Shown here: one piece after another, positions 6,899-7,037 of the stretch
Layout: each line of letters opens with the position of its first letter
Numbering within the stretch: position 1 is the stretch's first letter
Virus record (IMG/VR): IMGVR_UViG_3300028895_000881
Location: 1-64,000 of that record
Strand: one strand, 5' to 3'
DNA: 64,000 bases
Source: a virus
Notes under the pieces: generated by a model
The model's database searches: none
Told to the model about the DNA's origin: nothing
The model's input: the letters and a program-made list of their open reading frames with translations, nothing else
Made by a program: the position numbers and the translations under genes

Positions 6899-6975
6899 TG
6901 GTCGGCCCGGGAGGGATTGAACCTCCGACCTCCGCTTTATCAGAGCGGCGTCCTAACCAACTAGACCACGGGCCG
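6899..6975 (-). tRNA. tRNA-Ile(GAT), second divergent copy
   Basis: CCGCT-CTGATAA-AGCGG anticodon arm, CCA end. Confidence 0.9.
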
Positions 6976-7012
6976 AGCTAATAATGTCGCTAATGTCGCT
7001 TTCGATCTCCAT
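6953..7012 (-). CDS. Ile-rich leader mini-ORF MEIESDISDIISSARGLVG running into tRNA-Ile
   Basis: Strong SD AGGAAGGAG 7 nt before ATG; 4 Ile codons in the first 11; stop lies inside the tRNA D-arm. Confidence 0.6.
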   Translation of the reverse strand: MEIESDISDIISSARGLVG

Positions 7013-7037
7013 GGTCTCTCTCCTTCCTGTTATTGCT

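Follow-up and report, generated by a model that had tools for sequence, protein, structure and literature searches.

Why should a viral tRNA gene be preceded by a short reading frame that is rich in the codons read by this very tRNA and that, instead of ending before the tRNA, runs into it? This question is raised by the window analyzed here, a stretch of 64,000 nt that represents positions 1 to 64,000 of the virus record IMGVR_UViG_3300028895_000881 in IMG/VR. On its minus strand, the spacer between the genes for tRNA-Val(GAC) and tRNA-Ile(GAT) carries a Shine-Dalgarno (SD) sequence followed by an isoleucine-rich open reading frame (ORF), in the following termed Ile mini-ORF, or Ile cassette when the SD is included. 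Our analysis indicates that the Ile mini-ORF is probably a selected and translated cognate-codon leader of some regulatory use. This assessment is based on features that were observed directly, namely its anatomy, its conservation, its codon bias, the constant spacing to the tRNA and the unstructured spacer.

Anatomy and conservation of the Ile cassette

The initial annotation, made from the sequence alone, had described an Ile-rich mini-ORF with a strong SD that enters tRNA-Ile(GAT) and stops in the D-arm, and both the sequence and the tRNA assignments by ARAGORN and Rfam agree with this description. The elements of the cassette and the flanking tRNA genes are as follows, with a slash marking the 5′ end of the tRNA here and below:

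7038 to 7112, minus strand: tRNA-Val(GAC), located upstream of the Ile spacer and ending with ...ACCA at 7038 (ARAGORN; Rfam RF00005, 61.2 bits)
6976 to 7037, minus strand: Val-Ile spacer of 62 nt, which carries the Ile cassette (from the sequence)
7020 to 7028, minus strand: SD-like sequence AGGAAGGAG, separated from the ATG by the 7-nt spacer AGAGACC
7010 to 7012, minus strand: ATG start codon of the mini-ORF (from the sequence), in frame with the Ile codons in 4/4 homologous cassettes
6953 to 7012, minus strand: Ile mini-ORF, 19 codons plus stop, MEIESDISDIIS/SARGLVG-stop
6980 to 7006, minus strand: four Ile codons, ATC at 7006-7004 and ATT at 6994-6992, 6985-6983, and 6982-6980
6899 to 6975, minus strand: first tRNA-Ile(GAT) (ARAGORN; RF00005 at 6975-6902, 68.9 bits versus a gathering score of 29)

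The ATG is followed by the codons GAG ATC GAA AGC GAC ATT AGC GAC ATT ATT AGC, T/CG GCC CGT GGT CTA GTT GGT TAG. Thus, 12 codons and one additional nucleotide lie upstream of the tRNA, and 7 codons plus the stop codon lie within it. The TAG at 6955-6953 corresponds to tRNA positions 21-23 (D-loop/D-stem). The tRNA itself folds into a cloverleaf with the anticodon GAT, the acceptor end C1-G72, and an encoded CCA. With respect to its position +1, the first Ile codon starts at -31, another one at -19, and the last one at -7. Part of the Ile codon run is spanned by a tandem 9-mer, AGCGACATT, present in two copies at 7000-6983. That the Ile codons are exclusively ATC or ATT, as claimed before, is correct (one ATC and three ATT), but hardly informative because ATA makes up just 2% of the Ile codons here; the telling point is the excess of ATT.

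Short frames are frequent in GC-rich DNA, and the mini-ORF might be a chance open frame in the spacer. Among 200,000 random 62-mers generated with a first-order Markov model of the contig (dinucleotide statistics), 1,868 contained a 5-mer SD, an ATG at a suitable distance, and a frame open to the end. At least three Ile codons were found in 10 of these, but none of the 200,000 random spacers also had four or more. Ile has a share of 4.6% in the long ORFs of the contig, which gives a binomial probability of 0.0011 for at least four Ile among 11 codons; for the Asp cassette described below, with six Asp in 11 codons, the value is 3.6e-5. A chance frame would also not be expected to persist in four lineages with frame-preserving indels and a bias in codon choice, as described below. 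The random-spacer test practically excludes a chance origin of the Ile mini-ORF, which is very unlikely.

Related operons were located via a vWA-domain protein encoded just downstream of the tRNA array (window 5789-3756). For this protein, 1,586 homologs were found at E ≤ 1e-30, many of them with 72-79% identity. An alignment of 30 vWA homologs led to 38 viral loci, and a two-sequence alignment of the window protein and that of G001 to 7 metagenome loci. G001 is the nearest relative in reach, a record of 618,736 bp with 92% completeness whose vWA protein is 84% identical to that of the window. Because of the size of this relative, the window, which forms the start of a record of 83,068 bp (CheckV completeness 16%, GC content 59.6%), is considered a fragment of a huge-phage genome. 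The operon plan Thr-Thr-Thr-Asp-Val...Ile-Met is common to four of the records, G001/L002, L050, L051 (with the near copy L052), and L053.

The Ile cassette was present in four of the five readable related operons, those of the window, L053, L051/L052, and L050, and absent from that of G001. In L053, the leader MEKEDSDISDIIY/ has the SD AAAGGA and reads ATG GAA AAA GAA GAC AGC GAC ATT AGC GAC ATT ATC TAC t/. The L051 leader (also found in L052) is MDDDISDIIRH/, encoded by ATG GAC GAC GAC ATT AGC GAC ATT ATC CGA CAT/; its SD is weak and the tRNA-Ile that follows differs in sequence. In L050, MGAPDSEIAIPS/ is preceded by the SD AAAGGAG and encoded by ATG GGC GCT CCC GAC AGC GAG ATT GCG ATT CCC AGC t/. 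The number of codons from the ATG to the first conserved ATT is 5 in the window, 6 in L053, 3 in L051, and 6 in L050, which means that every indel was a multiple of three and preserved the frame.

No Ile leader was found in any of the 7 vWA-linked metagenome loci, and use of the patatin neighbor as an anchor revealed no viral relative. Pattern scans of IMG/VR did not uncover carriers of the Ile cassette beyond the known relatives. An exact scan with the 5′ part of tRNA-Ile gave 0 matches, and scans with the Thr-leader block and the Asp-cassette block matched G001 alone. A scan with a 17-nt block of the Ile leader (see below) gave 11 loci, three of which (L088, L091, L098) are located within the L051, L052, and L053 contigs; the other 8 are chance matches with no tRNA nearby. 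Of the five loci obtained with a degenerate pattern of the tRNA-Ile 5′ part, two belong to the contigs of L050 and L053; the remaining 3 are chance matches without a tRNA. Contigs assembled from four DNA runs and covering 6600-8750 represented mostly tRNA matches of other organisms and offered no usable variation at 6976-7037. One loose contig end from these runs, at 6998, matched an L051-type leader.

Cognate-codon leaders in the same operons

A second leader of this kind precedes the tRNA-Asp genes of the window:

7258 to 7410, minus strand: Asp cassette with the SD AGGAGG at 7410-7405, the ATG at 7398-7396, the peptide MDSDDSDDRDLY/, and tRNA-Asp at 7362-7287

As the initial annotation had pointed out, its geometry matches that of the Ile leader, with 12 codons from the ATG at 7398-7396 to the tRNA-Asp starting at 7362. 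The frame remains open to a TAG at 7260-7258 within the second tRNA-Asp. The Asp cassette was found in 5/5 related operons; the nucleotide sequences are very different, yet there are always 6-8 Asp codons, as in the peptides MDDDDDVHDPN/, MADDDDDDR plus 2 nt/, MPDDDDDDDDRL/, and MNIENDDCDDVDDTY/. His leaders ending with ...HHHLM/ or ...HHHTY were present before tRNA-His in G001, L050, and L051. The corresponding region of L053 (~21377-21436) starts with MLTQAHT like its homologs and has a CAC CAT CAT run that is out of frame with the ATG, which could be due to a frameshifted or decaying leader or to a sequencing error.

At its head, the operon carries a thrL-like frame, MKRSTTELTTTTTAMVVVAVVRPIMGDTTSC (window 8614-8709, minus strand), which is conserved in G001, L050, L051, and L053 and whose residues Thr, Val, Ile, Met, and Asp mirror the tRNAs behind it. 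Directly upstream of tRNA-Thr(TGT), at 8504-8530 (minus strand), a tandem 9-mer consisting of GGCCACGCT, GGCCACGCT, and GGCCACTCA was observed, which would read LATLATLATQ in frame; it has no ATG, GTG, or TTG start. G001 and L053 each retain a single copy of the 9-mer.

A Lys frame was found before Lys tRNAs. In distant relatives, a Lys-rich mini-ORF with an SD enters tRNA-Lys(UUU), with 15 AAA versus 5 AAG codons. These frames are located in the spacer after tRNA-Tyr (L044 1655-1710, L056 ~2970, L084 ~4460, L078 ~5743), and examples of their peptides are MKMIKSKRKQAPVPS/, MKQKSMPVKDGPKQY/, and MKRKNKPGKAGPKR/. G001 contains the frame MALWLQQQQI at 417612-417750 (minus strand), with four Gln among 10 residues, 135 nt before tRNA-Gln(CTG). 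The Ile mini-ORF thus belongs to a set of codon-matched leaders, comprising Thr, Asp, Ile, and Lys in the window and His and Gln in relatives.

The match between leader and tRNA was also evaluated in a pool of mini-ORFs from the window contig, G001, and 44 vWA-linked loci (7 metagenome, 37 viral). The pool comprised all frames with an SD and an ATG or GTG start at most 60 nt from a tRNA that reach this tRNA (68 cases, 55 unique peptides) and retained those lacking cognate enrichment, e.g., before Leu, Met, Glu, and Val tRNAs. At least three cognate residues were present in 16/55 unique mini-ORFs, compared to 3.4 expected under shuffled tRNA labels, and the cognate residue was the commonest one in 23/55, compared to 5.7. 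Neither value was reached in any of 20,000 shuffles; because the rows are related by descent, this score is an index and no true probability.

The leaders also agree in codon choice and spacing. ATT accounts for 9/12 Ile codons in the four Ile leaders versus 14% in long ORFs (binomial probability 2.7e-6, with three of the leaders sharing a block by descent); in the long ORFs of these individual genomes, its share of the Ile codons ranges from 5 to 22%. Similarly, GAT represents 23/32 Asp codons in the Asp leaders versus 39% expected (P = 1.5e-4), and CAT 9/13 His codons in the His leaders versus 34% expected (P = 0.0097). Since the tRNAs for Ile, Asp, and His all have G34, the preferred leader codon is in each case the one read by G:U wobble. 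Codons read by G:U wobble are decoded more slowly and are more sensitive to tRNA supply. The last cognate codon begins at -7 to -10 relative to tRNA position +1 in 12/12 leaders (four Ile, five Asp, three His), and the 4-7 nt between this codon and the tRNA vary in sequence among the 12 leaders, while the gap is constant.

The similarity of the Ile and Asp cassettes had been taken as a sign of one cassette re-tuned to a different amino acid on a shared AGCGAC scaffold. In the window, AGCGAC occurs twice in the Ile frame, and the Asp frame has one AGCGAC and one AGCGAT. The motif is kept in 3/4 Ile leaders, but it is absent from the Asp leaders of 4/4 relatives. The evidence is therefore insufficient for the view that codons were simply exchanged within a fixed scaffold. 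Re-tuning found partial support: the parts from SD to ATG are alike, with 2/2000 shuffles reaching the alignment score, whereas the ORF parts are only weakly alike (66/2000). Over the region between spacer start and ATG, the alignment of the Ile and Asp cassettes of the window is A.CAA.A.C.G.AAGGAG.GA..ACCATGGA, and in the relatives the context AACC..GAAAGGAG is found in both Ile and Asp cassettes. Both cassettes recur in related huge phages with the same choice of wobble codons ending with U and the same spacing. From these alignments, a common descent of the ribosome-loading module of the two cassettes appears plausible.

The acidic residues of the leaders allow another explanation, in which a D/E-rich nascent start (MEIESD..., MDDD...) destabilizes or pauses the early ribosome in an mgtL-like manner and senses Mg2+ or an ABC-F factor instead of tRNA-Ile. 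Of the first nine residues after Met, the window leader has four that are acidic and its homologs have 3-6, and the sister Asp leaders contain runs of 6-8 Asp. Two papers describe that negatively charged N-terminal sequences destabilize or pause ribosomes (10.1101/2021.02.02.429294; PMC11282234). Consecutive D/E runs of the mgtL type are present in the Asp sister leaders, whereas the acidic residues of the Ile leader (E2, E4, D6, D9) are spaced and not consecutive. As an acidic-leader effect would explain neither the conserved Ile codons and the ATT bias nor the presence of His, Thr, Lys, and Gln leaders upstream of the respective tRNAs, we regard it as improbable.

RNA structure, rival explanations, and a possible mode of action

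Several observations weigh against the Ile cassette being a leader that responds to Ile decoding. It is missing in G001, the closest complete relative, where AGGAAGGAG is kept after the last tRNA-Val and followed by a 5.7-kb insertion (L002 3723-9448) at the exact position that the Ile leader occupies in the window. This insertion carries a helix-turn-helix (HTH) gene, a DDE transposase with a SWIM finger, and an Eco57I-type N6 methylase. The sole tRNA-Ile of G001 directly follows an ORF (L002 9147-9458) that belongs to no known Pfam family and has its stop codon inside the tRNA. As the insertion replaces the leader, the Ile cassette is dispensable. The number of Ile codons is down to two in L050. 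In L053, Asp and Ile codons are equal in number (three each), and the L051 leader has four Asp versus three Ile codons, so the leader may lack specificity for Ile. A 17-nt block, GACATTAGCGACATTAT, is identical in the window, L053, and L051; three of the four Ile leaders are therefore non-independent, and the constraint may act on the RNA, e.g., on an AU-rich nuclease site, and not on decoding. The placement of the stop codon varies, with TAG or TAA in the D-loop in two leaders and TGA at the anticodon loop in a third, while the frame of the fourth stays open throughout the tRNA. Finally, an SD core was found in only 16/55 long ORFs of the contig, a crude first-ATG count that weighs neither way and does not establish SD use by the host of the phage.

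The 17-nt block, identical in 3/4 homologs although its flanks have diverged, would fit an RNA-processing spacer in which the AU-rich stretch GACAUU AGC GACAUU AU serves as an RNase E-type site parting tRNA-Val from tRNA-Ile and the reading frame is incidental. The Ile spacer is predicted to be single-stranded, and ACAUU presumably resembles the preference of RNase E for A/U-rich single strands. Such a function would, however, leave unexplained the strong SD at the correct spacing in 3/4 homologs, the ATG that stays in frame through indels of 3, 6, and 9 nt, and the match between enriched codon and next tRNA across the 55 mini-ORFs. Moreover, the sister Asp and His cassettes are not AU-rich. 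We therefore consider a processing spacer unlikely. The motif D-I-S-D-I-I, kept in 3/4 homologs, might point to a small peptide gene whose product, MEIESDISDIISSARGLVG, is functional in its own right. This is highly improbable, since the C-terminal third of the peptide is set by the tRNA sequence, the stop codon shifts from 7 codons inside the tRNA to past the tRNA end, the L050 peptide differs, and the cassette is replaced by the insertion in G001.

When folded alone, the Ile spacer was nearly unstructured, with a minimum free energy of -2.1 kcal/mol, and 184/200 shuffled sequences folded at least as well. The spacers of L053 and L050 were likewise poorly folded (194/200 and 184/200 shuffles equal or better). 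The unstructured Ile spacers fit an open ribosome-loading site. No terminator-like site, i.e., a hairpin followed by a U-run, was detected in 6899-7037 or after tRNA-Ile, which makes a transcription-terminator switch unlikely. A search of 6560-8800 against Rfam at E ≤ 1 returned solely tRNA matches and weak noise, without a leader family or a T-box (RF00230).

Spacer and tRNA were also folded together for the window, L053, L050, and L051 and compared with shuffles. A candidate anti-tRNA helix of the window, in which GACCAUGG from the start region pairs with tRNA nucleotides 5-12, was rejected with a z score of only -0.8 (43/200 shuffles as good), and it gains a mismatch in L050. Different pairings were predicted for L053 and L050 (z = -0.01 and +1.12), and folding was better than that of shuffles in L051 only (z = -2.27, 3/200). 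No alternative leader-tRNA helix was common to the four homologs, as the predicted pairings differed in each. Because the test for a terminator and antiterminator failed and neither a conserved alternative helix nor an Rfam family was found, the Ile cassette is not a classical attenuator, although the sensing principle is common to both.

These results also bear on a control at the level of transcription, in which the position of the leader ribosome would set RNA polymerase pausing or Rho access in the operon, and slow reading of the Ile codons would alter transcription of the downstream Ile/Met tRNA block, as in attenuation or polarity. The cognate-codon leaders of the thr, ilv, his, and phe operons establish this principle, and the conserved thrL-like frame heading the tRNA operon suggests that an attenuation-type logic may operate in it. 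On the other hand, the spacer is unstructured and lacks a hairpin with a U-run, the four homologs do not share an alternative helix, and a spacer of 62 nt between folded tRNAs would presumably provide scant room for Rho loading. Such transcriptional control appears rather unlikely.

As a tentative explanation, which we hold to be a serious candidate though by no means assured, we propose that the Ile mini-ORF is translated and acts as a gauge through its cognate codons, with ribosome speed on these Ile codons in competition with the folding of the adjacent tRNA-Ile and its cleavage by RNase P. Inferred in this model are translation itself, the sign of the regulation, and a role of RNase P. Ribosomes would load at the strong SD in the unstructured spacer and read the Ile codons, mostly wobble AUU, which end 4-7 nt before the tRNA. 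If charged tRNA-Ile is scarce, the ribosome would wait at the early Ile codons (-31, -19), and the nascent tRNA-Ile could fold and be cut by RNase P. If tRNA-Ile is plentiful, the ribosome would enter the acceptor stem and the D-arm, leaving the precursor unfolded or occluded, and maturation might be delayed or diverted. The outcome would be a negative feedback on tRNA supply for each amino acid, acting post-transcriptionally and without a terminator.

mRNA is unwound ~11-13 nt 3′ of the first P-site base of the ribosome. With the last cognate codon in the A site, a ribosome would be flush against the acceptor stem, and one or two further steps would begin to melt it. A ribosome waiting further upstream, at the Ile codons at -31 or -19, would obstruct neither the tRNA nor the RNase P site. 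The direction of the regulation is uncertain because the RNase P site would itself be covered by a ribosome halted at the last Ile codon.

A broader version of the gauge model is speculative and, in our view, possible but doubtful. It holds that the ribosome controls, in a codon-specific manner, whether the very tRNA that reads those codons can fold and be matured by RNase P. The operon spacers would then harbor a "tRNA-stat" for each amino acid, in which the wobble codons (AUU, GAU, CAU) are most sensitive to loss of or damage to host tRNAs, and replacement tRNAs would be released upon host tRNA depletion, e.g., by anticodon nucleases of defence systems.

Leader peptides that gauge the supply of charged tRNA are a textbook form of control of amino-acid and synthetase genes. 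Like the thrL, ilvL, hisL, and pheL attenuators, the Ile cassette is a short frame with an SD that is packed with codons of the gauged amino acid; in both, slowly read codons are preferred and the position of the ribosome relative to the next RNA helix matters. Unlike these attenuators, it has no terminator or antiterminator and no Rfam leader family at E ≤ 1, its target is a tRNA and not an enzyme, its frame has no stop of its own but enters the tRNA, and it is located between tRNAs instead of at the head of the operon. Synthetase genes are controlled in response to tRNA charging by pheM, the leader of the pheST operon, and by T-box riboswitches. These regulators share with the Ile cassette the coupling of the state of one tRNA to a translation component for the same amino acid. 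However, pheM uses a terminator, which the Ile cassette lacks. T-boxes bind uncharged tRNA without translation, whereas the Ile cassette shows no match to RF00230 and its regulated product would be the tRNA itself. In the case of ermCL, tnaC, and secM, a ribosome parked at a set distance decides on the fate of a downstream structure, as proposed here, but these leaders respond via the nascent chain to a drug, a free amino acid, or secretion; for the Ile cassette, the signal would be the decoding speed at cognate codons and the structure a tRNA precursor.

In bacterial mixed tRNA-mRNA transcripts (e.g., secG-leuU, metT), RNase P access is modulated by neighboring elements (PMC2241853). These transcripts have in common with the Ile cassette that a tRNA and a translated RNA are on one transcript, but their coding region neither overlaps the tRNA nor is enriched in cognate codons. 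The possibility that E. coli tRNA-Phe genes carry an attenuator-like leader found no support at pheV of MG1655, where the promoter is directly before the tRNA.

We found no description of leader ORFs before or overlapping tRNA genes, and no published case with a tRNA as the controlled gene or a leader frame entering the tRNA body, in a literature search that left old scanned papers and supplements outside its scope, so that an earlier description is possible. The principle of the cognate-codon leader peptide is known; the tRNA as target, the frame overlapping the tRNA, the fixed gap of 4-7 nt, and the absence of a terminator are new. If the gauge model is correct, a virus would regulate each tRNA by demand and post-transcriptionally with ~60 nt of RNA, phage tRNA arrays would be linked to the sensing of host tRNA depletion, and the cassette would offer a compact and portable means to sense decoding speed at codons of choice. 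The constant gap and the wobble-codon bias provide concrete experimental handles.

The tRNA operon and its surroundings

According to ARAGORN and Rfam, the tRNA operon extends on the minus strand from 8502 down to 6630. It starts with Thr(TGT), Thr(CGT), an HNH gene, Thr(GGT), an odd tRNA-like element of 70 nt, and two Asp genes, which are followed by Val(TAC), Val(GAC), Ile(GAT), Ile(GAT), Met, and Met. The spacers mostly have a length of 1-44 nt; two spacers of ~60 nt each have a mini-ORF inside. The second Ile gene has no leader of its own:

6808 to 6886, minus strand: second tRNA-Ile(GAT), 12 nt downstream of the first (ARAGORN, Rfam)

The 70-nt tRNA-like element (7423-7492, minus strand), which directly precedes the Asp cassette, was called Thr(GGT) by ARAGORN only and is below the Rfam gathering score; it is kept in G001 with the anticodon changed to TGT. 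In three relatives (L050 ~16150-16381, L051 ~14980-15512, L053 ~17470-17703), a repeat unit of ~110 nt with a T-arm-like end (..GGTTCGA.TCCAGGGTCCGCC..) was observed, followed by atypical tRNAs that start with GCAAAG or GCGAAAG and were called Val, Ala, Met, or Ile.

Genes of the homing-endonuclease type are located in and around the tRNA arrays (7708-8280 and 5848-6594 on the minus strand, 11847-12983 on the plus strand), the types being HNH, HNH_2, and LAGLIDADG with an HTH. A short release-factor-like protein with the Pfam domains PCRF and RF-1 is encoded at 13011-13676 (plus strand) and adjoins the tRNA region. The spacer between Thr(TGT) and Thr(CGT) (8383-8426, minus strand) contains AAGGAAAGAC ATG CCT GGA TAG, i.e., a 3-codon frame with an SD, and the corresponding tRNA of G001 has an ATG overlapping its 5′ end.

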